Made by a program: the position numbers and the translations under genes. A model generated the notes under the pieces. That model searched no databases. It was not told the DNA's origin and saw only the letters and a program-made list of their open reading frames with translations. Shown here one piece after another: positions 13,369-33,430 of a DNA stretch of 33,430 bases. Position 1 is the stretch's first letter. Each line of letters starts with the position of its first letter. This stretch comes from a virus (taxonomy: Duplodnaviria > Caudoviricetes), in the IMG/VR virus record IMGVR_UViG_3300049138_000113, positions 1-33,430 of that record, one strand, 5' to 3'.

Positions 13369-13382
13369 ATCTTTCCCCCTGT

Positions 13383-14124: not shown

Positions 14125-14144
14125 CGATCATCTAGGAGACGACA

Positions 14145-15925: not shown

Positions 15926-15928
15926 GGC

Positions 15929-15974
15929 GCGCGGGCGGGCGAGGGTCTGTGAGGGTGCGCACGCCCGCCCGCGC
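15929..15974 (+). terminator. Post-capsid stem-loop
   Basis: GCGCGGGCGGGCG ... CGCCCGCCCGCGC, 13-bp stem. Confidence 0.5.
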
Positions 15975-16001
15975 ACAACCATCGAGAGGGAGGGGCAGCC
16001 G

Positions 16002-16728: not shown

Positions 16729-16741
16729 GGAGGCGGCGGCG

Positions 16742-17092: not shown

Positions 17093-17496
17093 CGCTCCTC
17101 GAAGAGTTCATCGCGCTGCTCGACCTGCTCGCCCTGGACGTCGGGCCCCGCTTCTCGGCGAAGATGCCCTCCTCCCCTGACCGGTGCGTGGTCCTGGCCC
17201 GCTACGGCGGCGACGAATCCCTGCTGGCCGACAACTACGACGAGCCCAGAATCCAGCTGCGGACGCGCGGCCCAGCGACGGACGCCCGCATAGCCGAGGC
17301 TGACGCCGAACTGCTCTACGACCACCTGAACGGGCTCGGCACGATGACGCTGCCGGGCGGCACCTGGCTGCAACTCGCCGTCGGCCTCAACGGCGGCCCC
17401 GTCTACATCGGCCAGGACGCCAACAACCGGGCCGAGTACACCGTCAACCTCCGCTGCGACGTCAGCAGGACCGCAACGAACAGGAGTAACCCGTGA
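17089..17496 (+). CDS. Tail terminator protein
   Basis: MPSSPDRCV, EPRIQLRTRG, IGQDANNRAEYTVN; precedes the major tail gene. Confidence 0.75.
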   Translation: MTLLEEFIALLDLLALDVGPRFSAKMPSSPDRCVVLARYGGDESLLADNYDEPRIQLRTRGPATDARIAEADAELLYDHLNGLGTMTLPGGTWLQLAVGLNGGPVYIGQDANNRAEYTVNLRCDVSRTATNRSNP

Positions 17497-17951
17497 CCCA
17501 GCGGAAGATCAACGCCCGGGACATCATCATCGAGGTCGAAACCGAGGTGACCGACACCTTCATCAGGATCGAAAACCTCGCCTCCGTCACCGTCAACCGC
17601 TCCGAAAACGAAGAGACCGCCGACACGACCGACTTCGACTCCGAAGGCTCATACGAGCAGCAGATCATGCAGCGCGGCGCCAACATGGCGCTCGCCGGCC
17701 TGGAGCTGAAGGACCACCTGACTGGCGTGTTGCAGCCGGGCCGCGCCCGCGTGGAGGAGATGGCCGGCGAAGACAAGGTCGGCGCAGACTCGCTCGGCCG
17801 GGTCCGCTTCCGCCACCCTGTCGACACCGACTGGAAGATCTGGACGTGCACGTTCTCCGTGGGTGAGACCGGCGGGGAGACGAACGCCAAGTCGGCGTGG
17901 TCGGCGACGATCACGAAGAGCGGGCTGACGACCACGGATTCGGTGGCCTAA
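17493..17951 (+). CDS. Major tail tube protein
   Basis: ADTTDFDSEG.EQQIMQRG, GGETNAKSAWSATITKSG; synteny. Confidence 0.85.
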   Translation: MTQRKINARDIIIEVETEVTDTFIRIENLASVTVNRSENEETADTTDFDSEGSYEQQIMQRGANMALAGLELKDHLTGVLQPGRARVEEMAGEDKVGADSLGRVRFRHPVDTDWKIWTCTFSVGETGGETNAKSAWSATITKSGLTTTDSVA

Positions 17952-17953
17952 CC

Positions 17954-18472
17954 ATGTCGACTACCGAGCCAATCGACACCGAGCACGACAACGTCGACGC
18001 CGTCCAGGAGCCGAACCCGGACCAGTCCTGGGACGATTTCTGGGCTGAAGTTCAGCGCGCCGAAGCCGACGCCCGCACCGGGCCTCCCACGCAGACGATC
18101 CGCGGCATCGAAGTGCGGGTGCCGCACGACCTGCCGCTCCTGTTCGAGCGCAAAGTCGACCAGCTCAAGGGCTCCGACGATGAAGACGCGTTCGCTGACC
18201 TGCTCGCCGACCTGTTCGGTGCGGACGTGCTCGACGCCTGGACCGAGGCGGGCATGACGGCGCGCGAGTTCCAGGTGGCGCTCGCCTGGGGGATGGCCAA
18301 CGGCAAGGGCAAGCCGATGACGTTCCGGGAGGCGTACGAGCTGGTGATGGACCGGGACGGCGACGAGGGAAAAGCGAGCAGCTCGACCCGCACGAACGGC
18401 AGATCCGGCGGCTCTGGTGGGCGATCGAAGCGGACTTCCGGCGCGAGTACCGGCTCACGCCGCAAGAGATAG
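17954..18472 (+). CDS. Tail assembly chaperone (gpG-like)
   Basis: Between the MTP and TMP; contains a slippery site. Confidence 0.8.
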   Translation: MSTTEPIDTEHDNVDAVQEPNPDQSWDDFWAEVQRAEADARTGPPTQTIRGIEVRVPHDLPLLFERKVDQLKGSDDEDAFADLLADLFGADVLDAWTEAGMTAREFQVALAWGMANGKGKPMTFREAYELVMDRDGDEGKASSSTRTNGRSGGSGGRSKRTSGASTGSRRKR

Positions 18473-18606
18473 CCGCCCTCACCCGCCGCCAGTTCCACAC
18501 CCTTCTGGCCGGCCTGTCGTCGCAGTCGATCTACCGGCATATCGCCGCGAACGAGCTCGAAGAGCTGTCCGCCGGCGAAGCCCAGTCCTACCTGAACACC
18601 CTGTAG
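18367..18606 (+). CDS. -1 frameshift extension of the tail chaperone (gpGT-like)
   Basis: Slippery G GGA AAA at 18367-18373; -1 frame reads SEQLDPHERQIRRLWWAIEADFRREYRL...FHTLLAGLSSQS...NTL, stop at 18606. Confidence 0.8.
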   Translation, partial: GKSEQLDPHERQIRRLWWAIEADFRREYRLTPQEIAALTRRQFHTLLAGLSSQSIYRHIAANELEELSAGEAQSYLNTL

Positions 18607-18627
18607 CGCGGAAGGCGGTGGCCTCCC

Positions 18628-21363
18628 GTGTCTATGACCGTCGGCGAGCTCGTCGGATACATCGACCTCGAAGACCAGGGCTTCGACCGGGGTCTCGGCC
18701 AGGCCGAGCAGCGGCTACGGCGCCTGCAGTCCACCACCAGCTCCACCACCGGCCGCATCGAGTCCACCGTCATCGACGCGTTCGCCAAGGTGGCGGACGC
18801 GATCGGCGACGGCATGGACCCCGATGAGGCGCTCGCCGACCTGGCCCGCCTTGTTGACGGCGTCGACGACACGCTCACTCAGGTGGAGCGGCGTGCGCGC
18901 GACGCCAGCGACGTCATCGACGAGGCGATCGGTGACGGGGCGGAGCGGGGCGGCGGCCGGTTCAAGAAGGCTCTGAGCGGCGCGTTCGACGTCGCCCAGG
19001 CCGGCCTGTCCGGGGTCATGGCCGTGTCCAAGTTCGCCACGCTCGGCGTGGCAGGGCTCGGCCTGGCCGCGCTCGCCACAGCCGCTGCGGTCGCCGCGAT
19101 CGGCGGCGCCATCACCCTCGGCGTCGCCGGGCTCGGCGTGTTCCTGGCCGCGAACAAGCAGGTGAAGAAGGAAGTTGCCGCCCTCGGCAAGGAGGCGTTG
19201 ACCGCTTTTCAGAAGGCGGCCGCGCCGTTGCGGGGCCCGCTGTTGGAGGGCCTGGAGCGCATCCAGGGCAAGATCAAACCTTTCGCGAAGATGCTGTCCG
19301 GCGTGTTCGAGAAGAGCGCCCCTCTGATCGAGAAGGCGTTCGACGTCGCCCTCGACGTGATCGACACCTTGATCGAGCGGCTGCCCGGCATCATCGACAA
19401 GGGCATGCCGGTCGCCGAGTTCTTCTTGAACACGCTCGGCGGCGCCATCTCCGGCTTCTTCGAGTTCATCGACTGGGGCCTCGGCAAGATCGAAGAGTTC
19501 AAGGCCGCGTTCAACGACAGCTCGACCACGCTCGGCGGCTGGGCCGAACGGATCGGCGGCATCGTCGAACAGGTCAAAGCCTTCTTCGGCGACGTGTTCT
19601 CAACCGTCGCAACCTGGATCTCCGAAAACCAGGGCAAGATCACCGAGTGGGGGGCGAAGCTCGAAGAGGGCTGGGCCACAGCCTCCGAAGCGATCTCGTC
19701 GGCCATCGAACTCATCACCCTGCTGTGGGAACAGTTCGGCGACGACATCCTCAACGCGCTCGGCATCCTCGTCGACACGTTCCTCGGCGTCTGGAACGGC
19801 CTGTGGACCACCATCTCCGGCATCCTCGACGTCGCAGTCGGGCTGCTCACCGGCGACATGGATCGGCTCAAAGAGGGCCTCGAAAAGATCTGGAACGGCC
19901 TGTGGGAAGCGGTCGAATCCATCCTGGTCGGCGCCCTCGATTTGATCAAAAACCAGATTGCCGCCGCCTGGGGCTTCCTGGAGAGCCGGACCGGCGTCAC
20001 CTGGGCGATGTTCAAGCAGGCCATCTCCGACGCGATCGACAACGCGATCAGCATCATCAAGGGATTGCCGGGACAGATCAAGGCCGGGCTCGGCAACATC
20101 GGCACCCTGCTGCTCCAGGCAGGCCGGGACCTGATTCAAGGCATGATCAACGGGATCCGGGCGAAAGCGGCGGAGCTGGTCACCGCCGCGCAGGGAACCG
20201 TTCAATCCGCGGTCGACGGGGCCAAGAACCTGCTCGGCATCTCCAGCCCTTCGCGGGTGTTCGAGGAGATCGGAAAGTGGACGGTCGCCGGGCTCGTGCG
20301 CGGCCTGACCGACAGCAAGGCCCAGGCCGTCGACGTCGTCACGCGGATGGTCGACGAGATCAAGACCGCCTTCAAAAGCCAGCCGGACGTCGCGGACGGC
20401 CTGATCAAGTTCGTCCAGGTCGGCAACGACTCGCTGGCCGCGTTGGCGAAGCAGCGCGAGGATCTCGTGGCCCGGTTGGCGGCGGCGAAGGAGATGGCGA
20501 AGAAAGTCGCCGGCGACGCGGCTGAGTGGGCGGCCCTCACCGGGTTGAAGGCGGAGGACTTCACCGGGGCCGGCGACATGGCGGGCGAACTGTCGAAGAA
20601 GGCCAGCGCGATCAACAACTTCGCCAACAACATCAACGCTTTGGCGAAGCGCGGCCTCAACAAGGCGACGATTCAGCAGATCATCGACGCCGGCGTGGAG
20701 AAGGGCGCCACCTTCGCCGAGATGCTGGTCGGTTCGGACGGCAGCGAAATCAAAGCCCTGAACAAGGCGCAGGCGGCTGTCGACAAGGCGTCGAAGAAGC
20801 TGGGCAAGGCTTCGGCAGATGCTATGTACGACACCGGCAAAAAGGCTGGTGAGGGCTATCTGAAGGGCTTGCAGGACAGCCTGAAGAAGTTGGACAAGGA
20901 GATGTCCAAGATCGTCAAAGCTCTGGTGGCGGCGATCAAGAAAGAGCTCAAGATCAAAAGCCCCAGCCAGGTGATGGCCGAGATCGGCGTCAACACCATG
21001 GCCGGCTGGATCGAAGGCATCACCAGCATGGCCGGTGCAGTCGTGGGCGCCGCCCAAGGCGTCATCGGCCAAGCCGTCTCAGCCGCAGCCAATGGCGCGG
21101 CCAGCGTCGCCGGCTCGACGCCGAACCTCGCCGGATCCAACGCCGTCGGCAACGCAGGCGGCCAGGGCGGCGAAGGATTCTCGCAGAAGTACGGCTTCGC
21201 GGTCGGCCGCGGCTTCGGCGTCATGGCCGAACCCATGCCAGCCGCCGGCCAGGGCGTGAACGTCAACATCGACATGTCCAACAGCGTGGTCCGCGAGGAA
21301 CCCGACCTGGACAAGATCGGCAACCAGGTCGGGTTCCGGATCCTGGCGGCCGGGCTGACATGA
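18628..21363 (+). CDS. Tape measure protein
   Basis: 911 aa, Ala/Gly-rich helical; TVGELVGYIDL start, Trp/Phe periodic repeats, GISSPSRVF. Confidence 0.92.
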   Translation: MSMTVGELVGYIDLEDQGFDRGLGQAEQRLRRLQSTTSSTTGRIESTVIDAFAKVADAIGDGMDPDEALADLARLVDGVDDTLTQVERRARDASDVIDEAIGDGAERGGGRFKKALSGAFDVAQAGLSGVMAVSKFATLGVAGLGLAALATAAAVAAIGGAITLGVAGLGVFLAANKQVKKEVAALGKEALTAFQKAAAPLRGPLLEGLERIQGKIKPFAKMLSGVFEKSAPLIEKAFDVALDVIDTLIERLPGIIDKGMPVAEFFLNTLGGAISGFFEFIDWGLGKIEEFKAAFNDSSTTLGGWAERIGGIVEQVKAFFGDVFSTVATWISENQGKITEWGAKLEEGWATASEAISSAIELITLLWEQFGDDILNALGILVDTFLGVWNGLWTTISGILDVAVGLLTGDMDRLKEGLEKIWNGLWEAVESILVGALDLIKNQIAAAWGFLESRTGVTWAMFKQAISDAIDNAISIIKGLPGQIKAGLGNIGTLLLQAGRDLIQGMINGIRAKAAELVTAAQGTVQSAVDGAKNLLGISSPSRVFEEIGKWTVAGLVRGLTDSKAQAVDVVTRMVDEIKTAFKSQPDVADGLIKFVQVGNDSLAALAKQREDLVARLAAAKEMAKKVAGDAAEWAALTGLKAEDFTGAGDMAGELSKKASAINNFANNINALAKRGLNKATIQQIIDAGVEKGATFAEMLVGSDGSEIKALNKAQAAVDKASKKLGKASADAMYDTGKKAGEGYLKGLQDSLKKLDKEMSKIVKALVAAIKKELKIKSPSQVMAEIGVNTMAGWIEGITSMAGAVVGAAQGVIGQAVSAAANGAASVAGSTPNLAGSNAVGNAGGQGGEGFSQKYGFAVGRGFGVMAEPMPAAGQGVNVNIDMSNSVVREEPDLDKIGNQVGFRILAAGLT

Positions 21364-21635
21364 GGAGGACGCGCGTGGGCGTGCAGGGATACACCAAGGC
21401 AGACCTGCGGCGGCTCAAGTCCGTCGCGGTCCGGCCGCGCGGCTTCAGCCACGGGGTCCGGCCGGTCGTGCGGGAGTACCGGGACGTGGTCACCGGCCAC
21501 TGGATCAAGGTCATCACGAACGAGCAGGGCAACCGGCAGCGGATGCGCTGGTCCGGGCAGGACGCGATCGTGACCCTGCCCCACTTCACCGTCTCCCCAT
21601 GGACCGGGGTCACGATCTCGAAGGAGTACAGATGA
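21360..21635 (+). CDS. Basic hypothetical protein (91 aa)
   Basis: ATGA overlaps at both ends; the true start may be a downstream GTG after GAGGAGG. Confidence 0.6.
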   Translation: MRRTRVGVQGYTKADLRRLKSVAVRPRGFSHGVRPVVREYRDVVTGHWIKVITNEQGNRQRMRWSGQDAIVTLPHFTVSPWTGVTISKEYR

Positions 21636-22174
21636 AACGGATTGTGCGCCACGGCCAGCGGGCCCGGGCGGCGGTGCGCGCCCTGGAAGACGCATGCACC
21701 CCGCTGGAAGAGGCGCTGTACGAGGCCAAGGAGAACTACTGGGAGGCCGTCGACGGCGGCGACCCGGCCGCGATCCGGGAGGCGAAGACGGCCAAGCAGA
21801 CGGCGGCGGCCGCGTTCGAGGAAACCCGCACGTGGCTGCGCAGGGAGGCGGAGATCGTCAAGCTGCAGACGCGGACGATCCCGCGCCTTGAGCAGATCCT
21901 GGCCGGGCCGATGCTGGTCAAGGACGGCAAGAACGACGCCCGGGACGACGCGAAGGCGCGCGCCGAGGTTGAAGCCGCGCTGGCTGCCGCCGTAGCCGAA
22001 CTGGAGAAGAGCCTCGCGCTCGCGCTGCCGCTCCGGCAGGCTCTGCAGGAGCTCGGCGGTGTCGTCGAAGGCGATCCGGTGCCGCCCGACCTGCCGCCCG
22101 GGAGCGCGGACGTGACCGCGCCGAGCATCAACGTCAAGCCGCGGGCGCGCGCCACCGCCAAGAAGGAGAGCTGA
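21632..22174 (+). CDS. Alpha-helical hypothetical protein (180 aa)
   Basis: RBS AAGGAG; ATGA overlap. Confidence 0.7.
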   Translation: MKRIVRHGQRARAAVRALEDACTPLEEALYEAKENYWEAVDGGDPAAIREAKTAKQTAAAAFEETRTWLRREAEIVKLQTRTIPRLEQILAGPMLVKDGKNDARDDAKARAEVEAALAAAVAELEKSLALALPLRQALQELGGVVEGDPVPPDLPPGSADVTAPSINVKPRARATAKKES

Positions 22175-22175
22175 C

Positions 22176-22610
22176 ATGGCTTCTGGCGTGTACCTACCCA
22201 CCATGGAAGACATCCTCGACGCCACCGCGCTGAACCTGGCGTGGGACGCCGAGGACCACCAGGCCGCCCTCTACAACGCCACCCGCGCGGCCGCGGCCGA
22301 CTACAACGCCAACACCGTCTACACGACAACGAACGAGATCACAGGCACCGGCTACACCGCAGGCGGGGTTGTCGTCACAGGCACCGCGTTCACCCGGCCC
22401 GGCAGCGGCTTGATGAAGTTCAGCTCGAACGCGTTCCAGTGGGCCAGCTCCACACTAAGCGGCGTCGCACACATCGACGTCTACGCAGCCAACGTCACCG
22501 CTGATCCGCTCATGTTCGGAATCACGATCACCCCCGTCAACACCAGCGACGGAACTCTGCTCGTCACACCGCACAGCAACGGGCTCGTGACCTTCGATTT
22601 GACCCCGTAA
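22176..22610 (+). CDS. Minor tail / virion structural protein
   Basis: NEITGTGYTAGG motif typical of phage tail proteins; RBS AAGGAG. Confidence 0.7.
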   Translation: MASGVYLPTMEDILDATALNLAWDAEDHQAALYNATRAAAADYNANTVYTTTNEITGTGYTAGGVVVTGTAFTRPGSGLMKFSSNAFQWASSTLSGVAHIDVYAANVTADPLMFGITITPVNTSDGTLLVTPHSNGLVTFDLTP

Positions 22611-22630
22611 CCCCAGCCCCGCTGACGACT

Positions 22631-22654
22631 GCCGCCTCCCGGGGCGGCTTTCTC
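22631..22654 (+). terminator. Rho-independent terminator
   Basis: GCCGCC-tcccgg-GGCGGC followed by TTTCTC. Confidence 0.6.
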
Positions 22655-22676
22655 ATGTCCACGGAAGGAGGGCTAC

Positions 22677-24527
22677 GTGACGGCTACCTTCCGATCCAAC
22701 ACCGCCGCCGCCTCCAGCAGCGCCAGCTACACGATCGCCCGCCCGGCAGGCGTGGTCGAAAACGACATCCTCGTGCTGGCCCAGTTCGCCGACGTGGGCG
22801 CCCTCACCGACATGCCGACCCCGTCCGGGTGGACGCAGCTGCTCGCGGTGGATGCGTCCGGCGGTTCCAACATGCGCGGCAAGCTATGGGTTAAGGAAGC
22901 GTCCGGGTCCGAGCCATCCACCTACAGCCTGGCGCACGGGGGCGGCTCTGACGGCGTAGCCCACCTGTTCGCCTTCGTAGACGGCGCCCTGCCTGCCACG
23001 GCGGCATCATCCACGGCCGGCACCGGGACGGCCGTCACCACGCCGGGCATCACCCCGGTCAGGTCCGACGATGTGGAGGTCCGTTTCGCTGCCGCGAACG
23101 GTGCTGAAGCCGTTCGCACCTTCACCCCCGCCGCCGGATTCACCGAACCGGCGGGCGCGGACACGAACTCTTCCGGCTACACGACAGCGGCGGGCGGCTA
23201 CCGAACGCTCGCCTCCTCCGCCGCCACGTCGGCCGCCAACTGGACCGCGTCCGGCACCATCACGGCGGCGGCCCGTCTCGGCTTCACCGTCACCATCCCC
23301 AGCTCGGGCGAGGACGCGGAAGCCACCCCAGACACGGTCGCCGCAACCACGGCCGTGCCCGCACCCACGGTCACCGTCTCCGCCAACCCGGCACTGGCCA
23401 CGGTGGCCGCCACCGCAGCACTACCAGGCCCGGCCCTTTCAACAGGCGCGGGGTCCACCCCGGACACGGTGGCCGTCGCCGCCACTGTCCCCGACCCGTC
23501 GGTGACGACTCAGGACGTCGAGATCGTCACCCCGGCCACGGTGGAGGCGGCGGCCGGGGTGCCCGATCTGGGGATCTCGGCCAGCGCGGACGCCACCCTC
23601 AACACCATCGAGGCGATCATCGCCTTGTACGCGCCTGAGGTTTCGGCCGGCGCCAGCGTCACCCTCGCCCCCATCCAGGTGGTGGCCGACGTCCACACGC
23701 CGTCCACGGCCGTACCCGTCCTACCCGGCGACCAGATCAGCCGGCCGGGACAGATCGAGTGGAACGGTTTCCTGCTCGGCAGCCTCACCCCGTACTCGTG
23801 GCAGGAGTTGCAGGGCTGGACGGATTCGGCCCCGTTCATCTCCGGCAACGTCGAACGCCCCGACAGCAGCGGTTCGTATCCCGGCCAGCCGTACCTGGCC
23901 GAACGCGCCATCAACTGGACCACCCTGATCAAAGCGCCGCGCGACTCGATCGGCCAGACGGTGCACGACCTGGTGATGGCCACCGGACCCGCCCAGTCGG
24001 AGGACGAAGGGTGGTTGGTCATCTGGGATTGGGATGATCTGCAGCCGTACCTGGTACGCGCGCACCTCTCCGACCGGAAGCCGGGCCCGATCAACAAGCA
24101 AGCCCGCCTCGGCCTGATGCGCGGCGCCCTCCAATGGATAGCCAGTGATCAGCGCAGGTACGACCCGGTCAGATCGTCGCTCACCATCGTCAAGGACGTC
24201 GAAACGTCGATCTTGAATGACGGCAACGATGCGTCGCCCGGCGAGTTCCGCTTCCCCGGGCCGGTCGTCGGCGTCCAGCTGGAGAACTTGACCACGGACC
24301 GGGTGATCGCCGTCTCCACCACGGTCACCGACGGCGAAACCCTGGTGATCGACGTCAAGGAAGGCACCGTCGCCATCGGCGACGTCAACCACCTGAACGA
24401 CCTCGTAGAGGGCTCGGCCAGCGTGCAGGACATGGTGTTCAACCCCGGCGCGAACACCCTCATCTGGACGGCCGACTCCGGCGGCAGCGCCGGCATGGAG
24501 ACGTTCTGGCGGCACGCCGTCAGCTAA
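22677..24527 (+). CDS. Distal tail protein (Dit-like C-terminus) with N-terminal beta-sandwich domain and Thr/Ala/Pro repeats
   Basis: C-terminal GQIEWNGFLLG..ELQGW, LQWIASDQRRY, GETLVIDV, PGANTL; RBS GGAGGG. Confidence 0.75.
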   Translation: MTATFRSNTAAASSSASYTIARPAGVVENDILVLAQFADVGALTDMPTPSGWTQLLAVDASGGSNMRGKLWVKEASGSEPSTYSLAHGGGSDGVAHLFAFVDGALPATAASSTAGTGTAVTTPGITPVRSDDVEVRFAAANGAEAVRTFTPAAGFTEPAGADTNSSGYTTAAGGYRTLASSAATSAANWTASGTITAAARLGFTVTIPSSGEDAEATPDTVAATTAVPAPTVTVSANPALATVAATAALPGPALSTGAGSTPDTVAVAATVPDPSVTTQDVEIVTPATVEAAAGVPDLGISASADATLNTIEAIIALYAPEVSAGASVTLAPIQVVADVHTPSTAVPVLPGDQISRPGQIEWNGFLLGSLTPYSWQELQGWTDSAPFISGNVERPDSSGSYPGQPYLAERAINWTTLIKAPRDSIGQTVHDLVMATGPAQSEDEGWLVIWDWDDLQPYLVRAHLSDRKPGPINKQARLGLMRGALQWIASDQRRYDPVRSSLTIVKDVETSILNDGNDASPGEFRFPGPVVGVQLENLTTDRVIAVSTTVTDGETLVIDVKEGTVAIGDVNHLNDLVEGSASVQDMVFNPGANTLIWTADSGGSAGMETFWRHAVS

Positions 24528-24536
24528 GGGGGCGGC

Positions 24537-26345
24537 ATGGCAGTCCAACCACGCGCCGTAACGGTCACCCCCATCGGGGATGACGACCTGGTCGACGCCC
24601 CCACCGACGTCCAATCCGGAGACATCCTCCTCGCTTGGGTAGAGACGGCCGGGTCCGTCGACGACATCGACGTCACCGGCGGCACACCCTGGGTCGCCAT
24701 CGCCGAGAACACCAGCCAGTTCAGCACCCGCCTGTTCGCCCAGGTGGCCGGCACCACCAACCCAGGCAGCTACTCCGTCGAGCTCGGCGACGGCGACTCC
24801 GGCCTGGTCGGGCTCGCACACCTGCGCGGCGCCACGCTCGCCGACCTCGTGATCGAATCCACCAGCGGCGGCTTCCGATCCAGCGGTGTCCCCTGTCCAG
24901 CAGCTGAACCGGGCGTCGCAGGCGGTGCCGAGATTCGCGTCGCGCTGGCGTCCAACGCGTTCATCGATATCGAGTTTTCGGGCGGCTACTCGCGTGAAGG
25001 CCAAGCAGCCGATGACGGCGACGCCATGTACGTCGGGGCCCGCACCGCCCTGTCGTCAGCGGATCTGCCGCAGCAGGTCATCTCCACCGAGTCCGCGATC
25101 GTCAACGGCTGGCAGGCGTGGACCGTCATCGTCGCGCCCGGCTCCACAGTGCCGCCGCCCCCGCCGACGCCGGCGTTCGCGGTCCGCGGCAGGGCGTTGT
25201 ACAGGTACACCGCCCATGACTTTCTGACCGGCACGTACATCGACGACATCTATCCGCGCGATGTCGAATACGGCAAGGGACTCCGCGGGCCTGGACCCTT
25301 CACCGGCACGCTGCCGATCCCCAACAGCCGGGTCGCACGGGCCGTCCGCCGCGTCATCCCCCAGACCAAGGCGGATTTCACCACCGGGCCGGGACGTGTA
25401 GAGATCCGCATCTGGCGGGACGGCGAGCTGCGCGGCCGGTACTGGCTGACCGGGTCTCAGCTGACTCGCGGCCGGGACGGCAAGATCAGCATCGCGCTGC
25501 GCGGCAGCACCCTGGACGCCTACTGGTACTCCCTGATGGTCCGGGCCACCCTGAACGGCGCAGACGACGAGCAGATCGACAACGCGCGCACCTTCCTGGC
25601 TTTCGCCTTGAGCGAAGCCGACGCCGACCTCGGCATCACCTTCCAGTCCGGATCCTCCGAGGTGTTCCGGCCGCTGACGGTGAAACCGGAGGACAACACG
25701 AACTACGGGCGCGTCGTCGAGGAGTACAGCAAATCGCAGGACGGCTTCGAATACTTCCTGGCCGAGACCGTGGATGAGACCGGGGTCGTCTCCACCTGGC
25801 GGTGGGCGAGCCCCAAGTTCGACACCGGCATCAGCCACGTCTTCAGCAGCAGCCCACACGGCGGAGACATCGCCGAAACCGGCGTCGACATCGACGCCCT
25901 GCGCGGCGGCACAGACTGGCGAGCTCGCGGCGGCACTCTCCAGCCGGACCCGGAAGAGGACGGTTTCGCCGTCTTCAGCGACCCGGTCGAAACCCCGCAC
26001 CGCGCCGCCGGGTGGCCGAGGATCGATCACCACGTGGACCACCCGGCCGAGTCGACCGACGGAGACGAACTGGAAGGGCTGGCCCACTACTACGCCGCGA
26101 TCGGTGGCGGAGCGCTCTGGGTCCGCACCGTGGTGGTGCTCCCGTCGAAGAAGTCGACGCTGACCATGAACTCGCTCGGCGACCGGGCGCGCCTGCTGAT
26201 CACCGACGTGTGGCACGAGAGCGTCGACGGCGGCGCCGGCCTCGACATCAGCGAGCGAATCCTGGAGATCCGCGTCCGGCCGTCCGGCCGGGGCCGAGGC
26301 CGAGAAGAAGTGACGTTGACGCTCGAATCTGTGGAGGTGCCATGA
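24537..26345 (+). CDS. Baseplate hub / Tal (Gp37-like) minor tail protein with extra N-terminal domain
   Basis: YRYTAHDFLTG, GPGPFTGTL, GWPRID, LGDRARLLI; follows the Dit gene. Confidence 0.75.
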   Translation: MAVQPRAVTVTPIGDDDLVDAPTDVQSGDILLAWVETAGSVDDIDVTGGTPWVAIAENTSQFSTRLFAQVAGTTNPGSYSVELGDGDSGLVGLAHLRGATLADLVIESTSGGFRSSGVPCPAAEPGVAGGAEIRVALASNAFIDIEFSGGYSREGQAADDGDAMYVGARTALSSADLPQQVISTESAIVNGWQAWTVIVAPGSTVPPPPPTPAFAVRGRALYRYTAHDFLTGTYIDDIYPRDVEYGKGLRGPGPFTGTLPIPNSRVARAVRRVIPQTKADFTTGPGRVEIRIWRDGELRGRYWLTGSQLTRGRDGKISIALRGSTLDAYWYSLMVRATLNGADDEQIDNARTFLAFALSEADADLGITFQSGSSEVFRPLTVKPEDNTNYGRVVEEYSKSQDGFEYFLAETVDETGVVSTWRWASPKFDTGISHVFSSSPHGGDIAETGVDIDALRGGTDWRARGGTLQPDPEEDGFAVFSDPVETPHRAAGWPRIDHHVDHPAESTDGDELEGLAHYYAAIGGGALWVRTVVVLPSKKSTLTMNSLGDRARLLITDVWHESVDGGAGLDISERILEIRVRPSGRGRGREEVTLTLESVEVP

Positions 26346-26623
26346 CCGACCAGTACGGGGCCAACCTCGAAAGGATCTTGCAGAACTTCGAGCGCCGGCT
26401 GCAGAAGCTGGAGACGGCCGCCCGCACCGTCAAGGGCGTGCCGATCCCGCCGCCGCCGACCGCATCAGACCCGGGCGGCCTGGACGGGCTCACCACGCCG
26501 GCCAACTGGCCGACCACCTATTCGGACGTGGTCGGGGAAAACGTCACCGTCGACCTGCAGTCGATCCGCCTGTACGCGCTCTCAATCCGGTCGGCCCTGC
26601 AGTCGGCCGGGATCTTCATCTGA
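26342..26623 (+). CDS. Small tail-tip protein (93 aa, coiled-coil N-terminus)
   Basis: RBS GGAGG, ATGA overlap; LERILQNFERRLQKLETAAR. Confidence 0.7.
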   Translation: MTDQYGANLERILQNFERRLQKLETAARTVKGVPIPPPPTASDPGGLDGLTTPANWPTTYSDVVGENVTVDLQSIRLYALSIRSALQSAGIFI

Positions 26624-26637: not shown

Positions 26638-26925
26638 GTGACCGAGATCCTCGCCGCCTGCGGCGCCCTAGTCGTCCTTGCGGGCGGCGGCGTCGTCGTC
26701 GTGAAACTCCTGCGAATCCTGAAAAGGGTCGGGGACTTCGTGGACGACTGGCAGGGCGAGCCAGCACGCCGCGGCGTCCCCTCCAGGCCGGGGGTGATGG
26801 AGCGCCTGGAATCGATCGAGGCCCAGTTGAAGCCGAACGGCGGCAGCTCACTCAGGGACGCAGTCAACCGTGTCGAGCAGACCACCGCACGCCTGGACGA
26901 GCACCTCACACCTCAGGAGGACTGA
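26638..26925 (+). CDS. Membrane protein of the lysis cassette (1 TM plus coiled coil)
   Basis: N-terminal TM; DDWQGEP.R.GV..RPGVMERL..IE..LKPNGGSSLRD motif common in actinophages. Confidence 0.75.
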   Translation: MTEILAACGALVVLAGGGVVVVKLLRILKRVGDFVDDWQGEPARRGVPSRPGVMERLESIEAQLKPNGGSSLRDAVNRVEQTTARLDEHLTPQED

Positions 26926-26927
26926 CC

Positions 26928-27734
26928 GTGGCGTCACTCATCTCACGCGCCGGTTGGGGCGCCGTACCCCCCTCACAGCGCCTGCAGCGCATCACCTCGA
27001 CGCGCGGGGTGAAGGTGCATTACACGGGCGGCTGGGTGGATCCCAGGATCGTCGACGACCACCGCGAGTGCATCGCCCTCATGCTCAGCATTCAGCGGAT
27101 GCACATGGCGGGCGGCCGCGGCGAGAAGTACTCCGACTTCGGCTACAACATGGCGGCCTGCCCGCACCGCCGCGTCTTCGTCGGCCGCGGACCCAACTTC
27201 CTGCCGGCGGCGAACGGGCCCGGACTCAACTCGCAGCACTACGCCGTCTTGGCCATGGTCGGTAGCAAGGGCTACGTCGTCCCCGGCGAGCAGCTGCTGC
27301 ACGGCGTCCTCGACGCCATCGAGTACCTGCGCGAGCACGGGAACGCCGGCCGGGAGATCAAGCGCCACGGTGACGGCTACGCCACCGACTGCCCCGGCGC
27401 CCGGCTGACCGCGTGGGTCCGCGCCGGCGCACCCAGACCCAAGACGACGAGCGCGAGCACCAGCTCGTGGACGGAGGGCCTCGTGAAGGATCTGCCCACT
27501 CTCAAGCAGGGCGCGAAGGGCTTCGACGTCAAAACGGTCAGGAGCTGTCTGTTCGCGCGCGGCGGCCTGGCCGAGGCGTCGTATGACGGCGTCGGGCTGC
27601 AGTCGTGGCTGGAGCGCACCGAGTTCGACGACGGCCTGGCCGCCGACGTGAAGGCCTTCCAGGCGTCCCGCAAGCTCGCCGCGGACGGGGTCGTCGGCCC
27701 GAAGACGTGGCCGCACCTTCTGCGAGTCAGCTGA
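26928..27734 (+). CDS. Endolysin: N-acetylmuramoyl-L-alanine amidase (Amidase_2/PGRP-like) with PG-binding domain
   Basis: ISRAGWGA, VKVHYTG, IQRMHM, DFGYN, H.D..ATDCPG; C-terminal VKAFQ...LAADGVVGPKTW. Confidence 0.92.
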   Translation: MASLISRAGWGAVPPSQRLQRITSTRGVKVHYTGGWVDPRIVDDHRECIALMLSIQRMHMAGGRGEKYSDFGYNMAACPHRRVFVGRGPNFLPAANGPGLNSQHYAVLAMVGSKGYVVPGEQLLHGVLDAIEYLREHGNAGREIKRHGDGYATDCPGARLTAWVRAGAPRPKTTSASTSSWTEGLVKDLPTLKQGAKGFDVKTVRSCLFARGGLAEASYDGVGLQSWLERTEFDDGLAADVKAFQASRKLAADGVVGPKTWPHLLRVS

Positions 27735-27847
27735 TGGCGGACGGCCTGTTCGCCCGCTGGTGGCCGCCGCCTCCCGAACTGCTTGACGACATCGACCCCG
27801 ACGAGCGGCCGGGCCGCGTTCCGGGTCTGTTCGACGAAACCAACTAG
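27734..27847 (+). CDS. Micro-ORF (37 aa, MADGLFARWWPPPPELLDD...)
   Basis: TGATG coupling to the endolysin; ends just before a terminator. Confidence 0.45.
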   Translation: MADGLFARWWPPPPELLDDIDPDERPGRVPGLFDETN

Positions 27848-27851
27848 ACGT

Positions 27852-27877
27852 CCCAGGGCCAAGGCCTTGGGCTTTTC
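27852..27877 (+). terminator. Rho-independent terminator
   Basis: CCCAGGGC-caag-GCCTTGGG followed by CTTTT. Confidence 0.6.
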
Positions 27878-27904
27878 CATGTCCCCCGAGCACTGGAGCA
27901 ATCC

Positions 27905-28468
27905 GTGTTGAAGAAGATCTGTACGTCCGTCGTAGCCGCTGTCGCGGTCGTCCTCACCCTCGGCGCGGGCGGCGCCTCGGCCTCCCCGGCGGCCGCCGCC
28001 GAGATCGCCACTCTGGACATCACGGCAATCAACTACAACTCGTACGGCGCGGACACCGTGACGAACAACACCGAGTACGTCGAGGTCAAGGCCAGCGCCG
28101 CCGTCAACGTAGCCAACCTGCTCGTGCAGGACGCGTGGGCCAAGGGGCGCGACAAGACCTGGGGCTGCAATACGTTCCGGCTCGCCGCCGGCGCCCTCCC
28201 CGTCGAGACCGGCGCGACCGTAGACGAGCTCCCCGCAGGTGCCGTGCTACGCCTCCACATGGGCAAGGGCACCGCGGCCATCGACCGGTCGGGCGTCCGG
28301 CACGTCTACCGCTCCATGCCGGCCGTCTGCGGCTACAACAGCAACGTCCTCAACAACAGCGGGCCCAAGGGCAACAGGTTCGCCGACTGGGACCGCGTCT
28401 GGATCACCCTCGGCAGCGAGGTCGAGTCGAAGGGCTACAACTTCTCCTTCGGCTACGTCGCCAAGTAG
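27905..28468 (+). CDS. Secreted lamin-tail-domain (LTD)-like protein
   Basis: Sec signal (MLKK, hydrophobic core, ASA); ITAINYNSYGAD..N.EYVEV, V.VANL.VQD, LPAGAVLRLHMGKG, VLNN..D..TL. Confidence 0.65.
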   Translation: MLKKICTSVVAAVAVVLTLGAGGASASPAAAAEIATLDITAINYNSYGADTVTNNTEYVEVKASAAVNVANLLVQDAWAKGRDKTWGCNTFRLAAGALPVETGATVDELPAGAVLRLHMGKGTAAIDRSGVRHVYRSMPAVCGYNSNVLNNSGPKGNRFADWDRVWITLGSEVESKGYNFSFGYVAK

Positions 28469-28474
28469 TCCCCC

Positions 28475-28501
28475 GCCCCGGCCAGGCTCGGCCGGGGCTT
28501 C
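28475..28501 (+). terminator. Stem-loop after the LTD gene
   Basis: GCCCCGGCC-aggctc-GGCCGGGGC-ttc. Confidence 0.5.
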
Positions 28502-28525
28502 GGCATCCCCCACGGGAGGTTGACC

Positions 28526-28810
28526 ATGTACGACCTGTTCCTGTCCTGGGTGCGCACCGCCGTACCCGCCGCCATCGGCTCCTTCATCGCCTGGCTCGCC
28601 GTCAAGGGCATCGTCCTCGACCCGGCCGAGGCCACCGGCCTGATCCTGGCCGTGGGCGGCGCCTGCGTCACCCTCTACCAGGTGGCCGTGTCCACGCTGC
28701 AGCGCAAGTGGCCGATCGTCGGCGTCCTGCTGGGTAGCACCAAGATGCCGTCCTACGCGGAGCACGCCCACCCGGGTGTCCACTCCGATCGTGACCTGCG
28801 CGGCCTGTAA
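28526..28810 (+). CDS. Holin-like membrane protein
   Basis: RBS GGAGG; VRTAVP..IG..IAWL, LYQ....LQRKWP.VG.LLG motif; 2 TM. Confidence 0.7.
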   Translation: MYDLFLSWVRTAVPAAIGSFIAWLAVKGIVLDPAEATGLILAVGGACVTLYQVAVSTLQRKWPIVGVLLGSTKMPSYAEHAHPGVHSDRDLRGL

Positions 28811-28811
28811 C

Positions 28812-28872
28812 CACGCGCGAAACAGCCCCCGTCGCCACCATCACGGTGGGGGCGGGGGCCGTCTTTCGCGTG
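28812..28872. terminator. Bidirectional terminator at the phage/tra convergence
   Basis: Long imperfect stem: CGCGAAA..GCCCCCGTCGCCACC-atcac-GGTGGGGGCGGGGGC..TTTCGCG. Confidence 0.75.
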
Positions 28873-28880
28873 CCCGAAGG

Positions 28881-29570
28881 TCAGCCGGCCAGGCTCACCT
28901 TTACCCCGCTGGAGAACAGGCTGTCGTGCAGCTCGATCGTCTCCGGCTTCACGCTCTTCGGCACGTCGAACAGGACAACGCCCTCCACCTTGTTGCCCGG
29001 GTTGATCTTCTCGTACAAGGATTTGGAATCTTCCAGGTAGATGGAGGCGCCCGTGTCCGCGTCGAACTCCTTGCCGCCCGCGTACAGCTTCTGGGCGGTG
29101 CTGGTGAAGGCTTGGGCCTCGTCTCCGATGTTCTCCACGGTGACGTGCACGAGCAGGAAAACGCCCTGAGCCTCGGTGCCGATGACGTCGCTGCCGACGC
29201 GCGGCCGCTTCTCCAACTTGGTCACGGTGAAGGCGAACTTGCCGTCCTTGACGGTGGCGCCGATCCCCGCGGTCTTCGCCACCCGCTCCTTCGTCGTCTT
29301 CTTCGCATTGCCGCCGGCGTCGGACTGGTCGGGCTCGGCCACTGCGCGGGTGGTCGGCTCACCTCCGCCGTTGCCGAGTGCGGCGATCACGACCGCGCAC
29401 CCGCCGAACAGGACGAGCATCACGACGCCGATGACGACGAGGATGAGCGGCGCGCTGCTCTTCTTCCTGTACGGGGGCGGGCCATACCCGGGCGGCGGCC
29501 CGTACCCCTGCTGGGGCGGATGCTGCGGCGGCTGGTATCCATGCGGATCTTGCCCATATGGCTGCGACAT
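28881..29570 (-). CDS. DUF4352 domain membrane protein (Mpr-like)
   Basis: ATG 29570 with GGAG; Pro/Gln/Gly-rich N-terminus, TM, IGATVKDGKFAFTVT, AQGVFLLVHVTVENIG, INPGN.VEGVVLFDVP, IELHDS.FS.G. Confidence 0.85.
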   Translation of the reverse strand: MSQPYGQDPHGYQPPQHPPQQGYGPPPGYGPPPYRKKSSAPLILVVIGVVMLVLFGGCAVVIAALGNGGGEPTTRAVAEPDQSDAGGNAKKTTKERVAKTAGIGATVKDGKFAFTVTKLEKRPRVGSDVIGTEAQGVFLLVHVTVENIGDEAQAFTSTAQKLYAGGKEFDADTGASIYLEDSKSLYEKINPGNKVEGVVLFDVPKSVKPETIELHDSLFSSGVKVSLAG

Positions 29571-29727
29571 CGGGTCTCCGATCGACTGGGGGAGAACGGG
29601 TGAGGGTTGGGACGTTCCAAACGCTGCTGTGGTTGGCGTCGTGTCCGGATCGGCATGTCCCAATCCGGTCACGTACCGTGGTGGGGTGGCGCCCGGCCGT
29701 GGGGAAGCGTCCGGGCGCCGCCGCACG

Positions 29728-29898
29728 CTACTCGTCGTCCTCGTCGGCACTGCGGTCGACGCCGACGCGCCCGACGGCCTTGCCGTCACTGTCGTACGCG
29801 GTCACCCCGCGGACCGTGATCGGCCCGCTGGTGTTGTGCACGACGCGCGCGTTCTGCCGGATCCTGATCCTGGGCCGCTTGGGCTGGTCCTTCGTCAT
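29728..29898 (-). CDS. Small hypothetical protein (56 aa, basic N-terminus, acidic C-terminus)
   Basis: RBS AAGGAG before ATG 29898. Confidence 0.6.
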   Translation of the reverse strand: MTKDQPKRPRIRIRQNARVVHNTSGPITVRGVTAYDSDGKAVGRVGVDRSADEDDE

Positions 29899-29983
29899 GC
29901 TGATCTCCTTCGGTTGTTGTGGTGGTGTGCGGCTTGCGGCTGCGCGTGGGATCCGCGACCGCACCTCTTTTTGATCTTGTGCG

Positions 29984-30091
29984 GGTGTCGGCAAGGTGTC
30001 GCGACGGGTGTCGCCAGCCTGTCGCGACAGGTGTCGCAAGCCTCCGACCTGTAACTCCCTCACGAAACCCCCGGGCCCCTGTCGCGACACC
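29984..30091. repeat. Candidate clt (cis-acting locus of transfer): phased 8-bp repeats GGTGTCGC/CCTGTCGC
   Basis: Copies at 29984, 29995, 30007, 30018, 30030 (11/12-bp period), plus 30078 and an inverted copy at 30084; directly downstream of traB. Confidence 0.7.
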
Positions 30092-32065
30092 TCACACCCC
30101 TGCGGGCTCGCCGAGCAGCACGTCCGCGCGGACGATCCGGTAGCAGCGCTTCTCGTCGTCCCGCTCGATCACGCCGTCCTCGGCGAGCAGCGCCAGCTGG
30201 TCGTTGAGCCAGCCGCGCGAGCTGAAGCCCGTCCTGGCCTTCACCTCCTTCAGGTCTCGCACGGCGAACTCTTGGCGCTCCTCGCGCGCCCACACGGCGA
30301 GCTGGGCGAGCAGCACGCCGCGCGCCTCCCCCGCAGGCATCCGCGGGCCCGGCCGGGCCGGGAACTTGGTGTTGTCGACAGGTTCGATCGGGTCGTCGAT
30401 CCCCGCCTTCAGCTCCGGCGACGGATCCTCCGTGGACACCTTGGCCGCCACGCCCCCCTCCTCCTGGCCGCCGCCGAGCCCGGCCGCCACGGCGGGCCCA
30501 TAGTTCGCCGCGATGATTGCGGTGAACTCGTCGACCTCCTTCGCCGCGGCCGGCCAGGCGTCGGCGTGCGCCCGCATCCGCGCGCTGGCCTCCTGGTCGT
30601 CCTCGCCCCAGTCCCACGAGCGGAGCGCCATCGCGATGCGCTCTTCGGGGATGCTGGGGGCGTCGAGGTAGGCCATTCCGGGCTGCTTCTGCGCCCACAT
30701 CTCGGGCCGGGCGCCCGCGTCCCGCTGAGCAGGCGACAGGCCAAACTTCGCGTCCGAGGCGGACTCGACACCGAGGCACATCTTGGCCAGCTGGCCGCGC
30801 GCGATCGTCGGCATCTGCGTGTAGTCCGACCGCTGCAGGCTGAGCACCACGGTGCCGCCCGCCGACCGGATGGCCTTGAGCATGCTGAGGAACTCTTCCT
30901 GCTCCTTCTCTGGCAGCGCGTCGAAGATGTCGGGGAACTCCTCCAGCCACACGATCCAGTAGGTGAGGCCACACCCGGGCATCCACTTCTGGTAGCCGTG
31001 CGCGGCCAGCCACGCCGTCCGCTGAGGGAGCTGGGCTTGGATGTCGCGCAGCATGGCCCGCGCCTTCTCTGCCGTGTATGCCACGCGGTGCAGGCCCTTC
31101 TCCAGCGGGCCGAGCGTCTGGTCGGCCTTGGTGATGTCGGCAGCGAAGATCGCGGCGTCGAAACGGGTCATGATCTCGGCGAGGATGTTCCAGCAGGCGC
31201 CGATGCTCTTGCCGGATCCGGACATGCCCATGATCTGCAGGTGGAAGCTGAACAGCAGCAGCTCGACGATGTCGAGGTCCTGCCACAGGCCCAGCCGGAG
31301 CGGCTCACCGATCGACCCGCCCGGCCTGGACGGTCCGGGCCACGGGATCCGGTTCTTCAGCACGCGCGGGTCCGAGATGGTGACCTTGGTCTTGGAGGCG
31401 TCGTCAGGGTCGAGCGCCACCGTGATCGAGCCGGGCGGCAGGCCGGGGATGCCGGATTCGATGTACGGGACCTTCTTCTGCAGGTCCTCCGCGATGCCCT
31501 TGCCAGGGTCGAGCTGCACCGACCCCTCGACCTTGTGCTCGCCTGTCTTCGTCGTGGTCGCGTCGGCGGTGATCCCGGCCCGAGCTGCCCCGGCGCCGAA
31601 CAGCGCCTTCAGCGGGTCGGCCACCAGCTGGTCGCCGTCGACGCCCTTGCGCCGGAGGGCGGCCCGGATGTTGAAGGAGAAGATGACGGTCAGGCCGCCG
31701 ATGAGGGCGAGCCGTCCCGGCCAGGTGGCGGCCGGCGAGTTGATGGTGGCCGCGACCATCCACATGCCGGCCGACAGGGTGGTGGCGGTGGTGTGCACCC
31801 TGCCCCACATGCTGCGCGCGTGTGACTGAAACCAGGTGACGACGGTGAGCGCGATCACGCACACGGTCATCAGCACCATCGTCCACGCGATCGTCTGCGG
31901 ATCATCGGAGCGCAACGTGACGTGCAGCACCCAGCCGAGCCCGTACAGGAGTGGGCCGACGATCCACGGCGGCGCGTACACCATCGCCTTGGACACCTCG
32001 CGGGCGGCCACCTTCTCCAGCGAGGACTCGTGCACCTCGCCCTCGACGATCGTCTTGCGCGCCAT
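30092..32065 (-). CDS. traB: Conjugative DNA translocase TraB (FtsK/SpoIIIE family)
   Basis: N-terminal TM helices; HLQIMGMSGSGKS Walker A; IVWLEE Walker B; RSAG..VVLSLQR; PE.W..KQPGMAYL; C-terminal winged helix; ATG 32065 coupled to the upstream stop. Confidence 0.88.
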   Translation of the reverse strand: MARKTIVEGEVHESSLEKVAAREVSKAMVYAPPWIVGPLLYGLGWVLHVTLRSDDPQTIAWTMVLMTVCVIALTVVTWFQSHARSMWGRVHTTATTLSAGMWMVAATINSPAATWPGRLALIGGLTVIFSFNIRAALRRKGVDGDQLVADPLKALFGAGAARAGITADATTTKTGEHKVEGSVQLDPGKGIAEDLQKKVPYIESGIPGLPPGSITVALDPDDASKTKVTISDPRVLKNRIPWPGPSRPGGSIGEPLRLGLWQDLDIVELLLFSFHLQIMGMSGSGKSIGACWNILAEIMTRFDAAIFAADITKADQTLGPLEKGLHRVAYTAEKARAMLRDIQAQLPQRTAWLAAHGYQKWMPGCGLTYWIVWLEEFPDIFDALPEKEQEEFLSMLKAIRSAGGTVVLSLQRSDYTQMPTIARGQLAKMCLGVESASDAKFGLSPAQRDAGARPEMWAQKQPGMAYLDAPSIPEERIAMALRSWDWGEDDQEASARMRAHADAWPAAAKEVDEFTAIIAANYGPAVAAGLGGGQEEGGVAAKVSTEDPSPELKAGIDDPIEPVDNTKFPARPGPRMPAGEARGVLLAQLAVWAREERQEFAVRDLKEVKARTGFSSRGWLNDQLALLAEDGVIERDDEKRCYRIVRADVLLGEPAGV

Positions 32066-32418
32066 CACCACGTCCACTTTCGGACGCGCTTCTTCTCCGG
32101 CGCGACCAGCTCGGCGAACTGCTTCTTGTACTCCTGATTCAGCAGGACGGACTCGACGGCCACCCAGGACGCCATCTCCGCCATCCGCTCCAGCCGCTTG
32201 GCCACCTTCTTGGCCCGGTGCTTGACGTCGATGCCGAAGGCGAGCGGATGCCCCGAGCCGATCTCCTTCAGCAGGCCGTACAGGTCGTCCGCGGCTGCCT
32301 CGTACTCCTGCGACAGGGCGCGGTTGTGGTCGCGGGAAGTGAGCGCGTACGCGGCCACGGACTCGCTGCCGTCGAACTCGATCACGTCCAAGCCGCCGGG
32401 CGACTTCTTGACGGCCAT
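32065..32418 (-). CDS. traA: Plasmid transfer protein TraA-like
   Basis: Immediately upstream of traB; LYGLL...RAKKVAKRLERMA...Y..QF.E...W pattern resembling Streptomyces plasmid TraA. Confidence 0.6.
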   Translation of the reverse strand: MAVKKSPGGLDVIEFDGSESVAAYALTSRDHNRALSQEYEAAADDLYGLLKEIGSGHPLAFGIDVKHRAKKVAKRLERMAEMASWVAVESVLLNQEYKKQFAELVAPEKKRVRKWTW

Positions 32419-32651
32419 CACGCCTCCCACATCTCGGCCAGGGCCGCCCGCACCCGCCGGGACACCACGGCGATGCGGGGGACGCCGAGCATGGCGGTGA
32501 CGATCGCATCGGCGGCGCCGGCGGCCTGCACGATGACGTGCCCGGTCCAGGCGAACGCGTGCACGACGCGGGCGGCCGCCAGGTACACCGCGTCCCGGAT
32601 GGCTCGACGGCGCGCGCCCGGGGCAGTAGTCACGACGTACACGGTCCTCAC
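32418..32651 (-). CDS. Small hypothetical protein of the tra operon (77 aa)
   Basis: GTGA and TGATG couplings. Confidence 0.6.
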   Translation of the reverse strand: MRTVYVVTTAPGARRRAIRDAVYLAAARVVHAFAWTGHVIVQAAGAADAIVTAMLGVPRIAVVSRRVRAALAEMWEA

Positions 32652-33430
32652 CGGAGCACCTCGGCGAGGTCGTCGAGCCCGCCCTGCCGGTGCCCGTTCA
32701 ACCGGGTCTCTCCGCGGTACGGTTCCGGCTCGCCGGCCTCGGCGGGCGGCTCCTCGGCGGGCTCGCCGCCGGAGCGGTCGCGGTCGACTTCGTCCCGGAT
32801 GCTGTCAGCTTCCCGCTCGCTGATCCCCCACCGGTTCGCCAGGGCTCGACGGCCGGCCTTCCGGCGGCCGTCCTGGAGGCTGTCCTCGTAGTCCCACGCC
32901 GCGGCCTCGTACCGGTCCTTCGGCAGCGTCCGCTCGACGCGTACCACTTCGACCGACACCTCCCGGTCGCGGTACACGATCTTCTCGACAGGCTCGACGG
33001 GCTCCGGCTCGACGTGGTCCTGGCCGGAGCGGACGAGCCACATCAGCAGCTCGTAGGCGCCGACGAACGCGACCGGCGCGAGGGCGCTGAGCAGGCGTGA
33101 TCCGAGGCCGCCGTCCCAGCCCTGGGCGACGTTCGCGGCCAGGGTGACCGCGCCGCCGAGGGCGAGCGCAACCCAGGCGAGGACCGGTACGGGCAGGCCG
33201 CGGCGCGAGCAGTACACCATCACCAGGGAGGCCATGACGATCACCCCGTCGGACATGGCCGGGTACAGGATCGCCATGTCGTGCCGCTCGCCCAGGTCGA
33301 TGGCGAGCGCGTAGAAGTGGTGGTACGACACGTACGCGGCGGCGGCCGCGACGGCGAGGAGGACGACGACGGCGACGCCTCGGATGACCCCGCCTCCCGG
33401 GTGCGGCGCGGGGACGGTGCGCGGCTTGGG
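32648..33430 (-). CDS. DUF2637 / Spd-like membrane protein (5' partial)
   Basis: Frame open to the window edge; AAYVSY.H...LA...GE, P...DG, TLAANVA, ALAPVAFVGAYELL; C-terminal HTH-like GRRALANRWGI. Confidence 0.75.
   Translation of the reverse strand, partial: PKPRTVPAPHPGGGVIRGVAVVVLLAVAAAAAYVSYHHFYALAIDLGERHDMAILYPAMSDGVIVMASLVMVYCSRRGLPVPVLAWVALALGGAVTLAANVAQGWDGGLGSRLLSALAPVAFVGAYELLMWLVRSGQDHVEPEPVEPVEKIVYRDREVSVEVVRVERTLPKDRYEAAAWDYEDSLQDGRRKAGRRALANRWGISEREADSIRDEVDRDRSGGEPAEEPPAEAGEPEPYRGETRLNGHRQGGLDDLAEVLR

Follow-up and report, generated by a model that had tools for sequence, protein, structure and literature searches.

A tailed-phage genome with a complete-looking TraB/clt module: a candidate temperate phage with a second, conjugative route of transfer

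The concept of a conjugative plasmid-phage is already published, and plasmid-phages of the pFP4 kind are described as both conjugating and making particles (PMC4170104). A second example, pZL12/phiZL12 (Zhong et al. 2010), compared here by description only, likewise joins virion genes and tra-dependent transfer in one replicon; its transfer is reported to require tra and two adjacent genes (PMC3583192), and it is described as an autonomous ParAB plasmid (PMC4487206). For pWTY27, tra and clt are reported to suffice for transfer, with TGACACC as the repeat (PMC3583192). Phi1207.3 of Streptococcus pyogenes, termed a 'conjugative prophage', is integrated and reported to transfer by mating (PMC4260502), yet it belongs to another phylum, and the accessible text on it gives no link to TraB or clt. 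The present work concerns a stretch of 33,430 bases, the whole of IMG/VR virus record IMGVR_UViG_3300049138_000113 (hereafter the window), which is a fragment, since the record has no terminal repeat. Judged by its genes, the window covers the greater part of a tailed phage's genome and carries a complete-looking TraB/clt module. The element is probably a temperate integrating phage, likely of a Nonomuraea-like filamentous soil bacterium, which would move by TraB between mycelia, and spread, besides forming virions. The novelty lies in an integrating form that recurs: no TraB prophage bounded by attachment (att) sites is described in the full-text literature covered (most subscription papers lie outside it), including the accessible text of PMC4487206, PMC3218068, PMC9513070 and PMC12282955.

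The tra side of the window resembles a wider set of transfer systems. Integrative and conjugative elements of actinomycetes (AICEs) and plasmids of the pSN22, pJV1 and pWTY27 type share with the window and its relatives the order GntR-Spd-traA-traB-clt, a homologous TraB (27-31%), short repeats immediately behind traB and integration at tRNA genes, but they have no virion genes, and in the window a full phage genome takes the place of their Rep-Int block behind traB. One pWTY27 gene downstream of traB-clt (L106:10642-12102) is annotated as a phage major capsid protein. The phages phiC31 and VWB, on which SpdB2 homologues have been suggested to help phage DNA spread (PMC4447253), are temperate and tailed and carry an Spd-type membrane gene, as does the phage proposed here; they differ in that no match to the window TraB family was found in the 50,697 GenBank phage records. 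Among GenBank phages the DUF2637 protein of the window also had no match, and pFP4 TraB as query gave partial FtsK matches only.

The nearest TraB proteins, at 69%, come from Nonomuraea sp. NPDC005650 (genome G001, locus L005) and from a sequence classed as a provirus in IMG/VR (G002, locus L001). Lysis and tail genes converge on traB in both, and relatives keeping the lysis-traB linkage, for which the first-pass annotation had proposed to search, thus exist. On contig C22 of G001, a perfect 43-bp repeat (24417-24459 and 68653-68695) encloses 44.2 kb, within which lie the GntR-UTRA, DUF2637, traA, traB, lysis, tail, head, Prim-Pol and early genes and one tyrosine integrase only (67427-68471). 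The empty site is seen in another genome, G281, where the same left flank runs into a whole tRNA gene. As a test of whether the two modules form one element, it had been proposed beforehand to look for one integrase and a lone attL/attR pair enclosing them, and this is the arrangement found. The att core corresponds to the 5' half of tRNA-Arg(ACG), and the phage therefore supplies the 5' end of the tRNA and the region upstream of it. In G281, a Prim-Pol AICE was noted just past the 3' end of the same tRNA-Arg. The window is collinear with the G001 prophage from 4047 to 33390, with nucleotide identities of 75-81% in the tra genes and 67-80% in the other blocks, and its traA-traB-clt stretch is 74-76% identical in nucleotides to both relatives. 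Placed on the G001 map, the window would end some 2.4 kb short of the full element on its right side and some 12 kb short on its left. Ghinet et al. recognised AICEs by Int, Tra and Rep within 30-60 kb, with PF01580 as the Tra profile (PMC3218068); the G001 prophage holds an integrase, an FtsK-type Tra and a Prim-Pol by homology, plus virion genes, and the TraB misses PF01580.

This arrangement bears on the proposal that the tra block is a captured, functionless AICE remnant or an adjacent separate element. AICEs do hold most of the close TraB relatives (26 chromosomal loci), outside attR of G001 and just past the 3' end of the same tRNA-Arg there is a separate RepSA AICE, and recombinase or cargo genes stand between the modules in two further genomes (G348 and G168). 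The proposal is nevertheless improbable: in G001 traB and the holin gene are only some 500 bp apart, no integrase or Rep was found from the tra operon to attL, and the single att pair largely refutes it for this clade. The three phages of the clade are about 30% apart in protein, yet their frames, motifs and cognate repeats are intact. Ratios of nonsynonymous to synonymous substitution (dN/dS, Nei-Gojobori) are well below 1, being 0.31-0.44 for traB (0.29 for its core) and 0.25-0.40 for traA, next to 0.19-0.59 for virion genes (portal 0.28, capsid 0.53), all values which a high GC content at third codon positions likely inflates. The tra genes appear as conserved as the virion genes, and the module looks maintained. 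At its outer end, a small GntR-type helix-turn-helix gene was observed (about 24590-24870 on contig C22 of G001; also in G123, G348, L083 and L087), which adjoins the att site in G001 and G123 and is a candidate directionality factor or regulator.

The tra operon of the window is encoded on the minus strand. TraB (30092..32065, minus strand; NF041214, E 3.6e-119) comprises an N-terminal membrane region, with hydrophobic segments at residues 58-76 and 119-137 as the anchor, an FtsK-type ATPase with the Walker A motif GMSGSGKS and the Walker B-like motif VWLEE, and a putative C-terminal winged-helix-like domain. Residues G280, G283, K286, E375, E376, R412 and W619 are invariant over 52 aligned sequences, and the profile built from these matches a conjugative coupling protein as well as FtsK motor structures (2.6e-11); a search of PDB with the single sequence returned noise only. 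FtsK_gamma (PF09397) was found in 14 of the 52 aligned relatives, not in the window TraB. The TraA-like protein (32065..32418, minus strand; NF041213, E 6e-7) scores 30 bits against an NCBIfam cut-off of 80, which pFP4 TraA also fails at 34. Next to it lies a hydrophobic open reading frame (ORF) of 77 aa with one hydrophobic segment (32418..32651, minus strand), probably Spd-like by size and position, the homologues of which are located upstream of traA in L024, L083 and L085. The operon is completed by a DUF2637 four-helix membrane protein (32648..33430, minus strand; PF10935; four hydrophobic segments), which is SpdB2-like and starts beyond the window end. At HHalign 98.4%, its profile aligns with the membrane protein that pJV1 and pSN22 encode behind traB-clt, a protein we take to be SpdB2, although the records do not name it. 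Translational coupling of DUF2637, the ORF, traA and traB, as initially claimed, is borne out by stop/start overlaps of GTGA, TGATG and TGATG. A divergent GntR (TraR/Kor-type) gene, seen in G001, G002 and G123, would fall past the end of the window.

The clt-like repeats reported beside traB also stood up to scrutiny. The locus (29937..30091, minus strand) is made up of GCGACA(CC) repeats, two TGTCGCGACA palindromes and conserved flanking words, with the repeats themselves spanning 29984-30091, directly behind traB. Seven copies of GCGACA lie in 121 bp, where the remainder of the window predicts 0.06, and both TGTCGCGACA sites of the whole window fall within the locus. The two closest relatives have 7 and 6 copies of GCGACA behind traB, and the other 69 of 72 traB genes have at most one. 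Among the aligned rows, 43 of 52 have one of seven words, picked after viewing the data, at least three times behind traB. TraB pairs that share a word, which are not phylogenetically independent, have a recognition-helix similarity of 0.76 versus 0.48 for non-sharing pairs near 60% core identity, and of 0.81 versus 0.61 near 80%. The repeat word would thus seem to track the recognition helix of TraB, and the repeats are probably cognate to it. The same word method recovers the published repeats CCGCACA of pJV1 and TGACACC of pWTY27 (PMC3583192), whereas a generic repeat finder missed the clt words, which are short. Three further words, CCCACGCGCAGCCG (29937-29950), CAAGATCRAAAA (29968-29979) and TACAGGTC (30046-30053), flank the repeats and are also found behind 15, 11 and 16 of the 72 traB genes, respectively, whatever the repeat word; they are possibly sites for a second protein.

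Much of this layout recurs in pFP4 (NC_017833; Chen et al. 2012; 41 kb), which has DUF2637-ORF-traA-traB converging on tail genes, a Prim-Pol, a divergent GntR gene like that of the window's relatives, and a TraB of the same NCBIfam family, 30% identical to that of the window. It differs in being a circular plasmid record with ParA, a different head module, another host family and another TraB subclade, whereas the closest relatives of the window are chromosomal prophages and the window has no Par match. The autonomous ParAB plasmid pZL12 likewise contrasts with these integrated relatives. The window element could itself be an extrachromosomal plasmid-phage like pFP4 or pZL12, which does not integrate: the gene order is that of pFP4, the window shows no integrase, and its replicase is unlike that of the G001 prophage, a D5-type Prim-Pol which the window Prim-Pol does not match. 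Since G001 uses a different Prim-Pol, the replicase appears exchangeable; that the Prim-Pol would serve both virion and conjugative spread, as first suggested, is a hypothesis. Both nearest relatives are integrated, ParA and ParB had no match in the window or in those proteins of the G001 prophage that were scanned, and the early region of about 12 kb, integrase-bearing in G001, is the part missing at the left of the window; a non-integrating plasmid-phage is thus very improbable.

For the preferred reading, a temperate integrating phage with TraB transfer as a second route, a sequence of steps can be proposed from TraB biology as described in PMC4447253, PMC3583192 and PMC2440964. In the lysogen, the GntR-UTRA protein, encoded by the divergent gene of the relatives, would keep the tra operon repressed. 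Once the DNA has been excised and replicated, TraB hexamers anchored in the membrane would attach to the GCGACA repeats by the winged helix and pump the uncut double-stranded circle into another hypha, and the SpdB2-like protein would carry the spread across septa. The recipient compartment would then integrate the DNA or turn lytic, and the same DNA circle would be packed into virions during lytic growth. The ancestor of the three-phage clade may have acquired the module once from the pool of AICEs and plasmids, and other phages separately. A rather unlikely alternative keeps the same single element, with a module that, in lytic growth or following infection, serves only to carry phage DNA across the septa of a single mycelium as it replicates, and gives no useful transfer from colony to colony. 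The missing ParA/ParB match fits this alternative, as no long-lived plasmid state is evident. However, the full traR-traA-traB-clt set is retained, TraB and clt being described as what a plasmid needs for primary transfer (PMC3583192, PMC4447253), and AICEs too are reported to transfer from the integrated state via a transient circle (PMC2440964).

Several points weigh against transfer between mycelia by an integrating phage. Excision normally accompanies lytic induction, and there may thus be little time for mating between colonies. Both transfer and virion production are predicted from gene content, and the window's own integrase, att site and GntR gene are deduced from relatives, as both ends are missing. 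The NCBIfam TraB model covers nearly the full length of the window TraB, yet the score is 399 bits against a cut-off of 800 (pFP4 TraB is likewise below it, at 426), and this TraB has no Pfam match of its own. Elsewhere, a tyrosine recombinase and cargo lie between traB and the lysis genes in G348/G404, and cargo with a weak integrase fragment in G168/G406.

If TraB transfer works, prophages could bypass receptor resistance and spread through the mycelium without cycles of lysis and reinfection, and the boundary between phages and integrative and conjugative elements would be blurred in antibiotic-producing soil bacteria. Host DNA may also be mobilised, because clt sits in the lysogen chromosome. 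Since a strain in culture carries a complete 44-kb element bounded by att sites, the published proposal that Spd and Tra proteins spread phage DNA becomes directly testable, and the repeat-helix pairings over some 40 TraB proteins offer a natural set for the study of TraB specificity.

The combination is not confined to the three phages. A TraB match was obtained in 84 of 401 genomes drawn around G001, and 40 of the best-scoring loci were studied together with 7 earlier ones; the 26 chromosomal loci were AICE-like by Prim-Pol and/or integrase, two with att repeats of their own. A second complete element, on contig C9 of G123, is an insertion of about 60 kb in comM, with a serine integrase at one end and traB, traA and GntR at the other; it has lysis genes, a head module different from that of the window, and a tRNA-Tyr without a duplicated copy. 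Lysis or tail genes converge on traB within 10 kb in 8 of 23 IMG/VR TraB loci, and terminase and portal genes lie downstream in three (82 of 153 downstream ORFs scanned). The integrase is at the far end in G405 and G408, as in G001. Of 49 genomes, two (G001 and G168) had a phrog_2 terminase no more than about 35 kb from traB, a count that is too low, because the G123 terminase was missed. In a FastTree phylogeny of 71 TraB proteins, from which the frameshifted L051 was excluded and in which G348 and G168 were not counted as phage-linked, the window groups with its two relatives in a branch made up of phages only, with a support of 100. The 15 phage-linked and 30 AICE or plasmid rows entail 10 label changes, nine of them forced by well-supported branches, which points to repeated exchange of TraB between phages and AICEs or plasmids, in one direction or the other. 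More tentatively, such elements could form a recurrent class of integrating phages in filamentous actinomycetes, with two routes of self-transmission, repeated capture of TraB/clt from AICEs, their own repeat-helix specificity and passage without the phage receptor.

Several candidates were set aside in this survey. G348 and G168 were dropped as phage-linked for the recombinase (or weak fragment) and cargo between their modules; this interval also holds cell-wall genes, namely MurA-like, MurB and a beta-lactamase-fold hydrolase, and MurJ (L024:5246-9435; L063:12240-13826). G282 and G385 were rejected as phages, being att-bounded AICEs of 19 and 28 kb with a tape-measure-like match beside traB, and so was G256, with such a match and no other virion match. 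Large tape-measure-like proteins near traB, with no other virion matches, were observed in AICE-like elements at L022:3922-7269, L026:9169-10890 and L027:10924-12183. A TraB-carrying virus record has a TROVE/Ro60-like gene next to tRNA-Asn and tRNA-Gln calls (L088:2473-4403), possibly a Ro/Y-RNA locus.

Within the window, the late operon and the tra module meet in a short interval. A long hairpin between the converging genes (28814..28872) folds with z-scores of -5.8 on the plus and -4.9 on the minus strand, and none of 200 shuffles folds as well. The bidirectional terminator claimed here is in part upheld: the hairpin is strong on both strands and by its position likely such a terminator, but a strict scan for T-run terminators did not call it. 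Only two genes then separate the modules, as had been stated: one for a DUF4352 membrane-anchored accessory protein (28881..29570, minus strand; PF11611, 4.9e-27), present in G002 and not found in G001, and a 56-aa ORF (29728..29898, minus strand) with no family and no match in G001 or G002. The window yielded no tRNA in a tRNA scan, no Rfam match and zero tblastn matches to eight integrase, Rep, GntR and Par queries, and a search for tRNA fragments at the junction gave matches at chance level only, in agreement with the claim that the modules are not separated by an integrase, a tRNA or an att-like junction.

The junction could in principle be an assembly chimera of phage and plasmid, the window being a metagenome-derived fragment. 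At least half of the words from 24500-33430 are present in four soil metagenome runs (X1-X4), of which X1 is the best and may be the window's own source sample; among the matches listed, contigs of the other runs bridge the junction only in part (X2 and X4). However, a single X1 contig of 4,603 bp covers 28081-32683 with zero differences from the window and has the same depth, 24.6, as the contig of the tail part. The genome of a cultured isolate and an IMG/VR provirus show this junction as well; these independent genomes refute a chimera and leave it a negligible probability.

The remaining genes of the window, on the plus strand, were characterised by family scans of 48 ORFs and by separate gene calls. 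A Prim-Pol/AAA_25 replicase (986..3334; PF09250 1.8e-23, PF13481 4e-20) is followed by an HTH_17 excisionase-like DNA-binding protein (3683..4039, start from gene calls; PF12728 3e-11, phrog_66). The late operon (5592-28810) has every frame open, mostly tight spacing and uninterrupted head, tail and lysis genes; the unbroken plus-strand frames from the terminase genes through endolysin confirm the intact siphovirus operon first described. It begins with a probable small terminase, named by position, and the large terminase (5592..7333; phrog_2 4e-41), 73% and 87% identical to their G001 counterparts. Near these genes X1 contig depth reaches 72 (6730-8481) versus about 25-30 elsewhere in 4620-10534, a weak hint of headful packaging, or of related strains. 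Portal, MuF-type minor head, scaffold and SU10-type major capsid proteins follow (8993..15359; PF05133, PF06152, PF06810, PF17236), then head-tail connectors, tail tube, chaperone, tape measure (909 aa), Dit, Tal-like and small tail genes (15575..26623; PHROG tail and connector matches, gene calls), among which no separate tail fibre gene was recognised. The lysis cassette (26638..28810) consists of a holin-like protein, an endolysin with a peptidoglycan-binding domain, a 187-aa protein with a signal-like N-terminus and a second holin-like protein (phrog_15431, phrog_1493 2e-33, PF01471, phrog_10742). Homologues of the capsid come from phages of 37-44 kb and 86-90 kb, and a genome of 44-47 kb is therefore plausible for the window phage. 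The minor head protein (10879-13188) has an additional C-terminal part of about 380 aa bearing an HExxH motif, with no match in Pfam, and its orthologues end without it at 407 aa (G001) and 370 aa (G002); the extension is possibly a virion-carried metallopeptidase. In the major capsid protein (14145-15359), residues 178-249, some 70 aa, form an insertion which matches a repeat of tail-fibre families.

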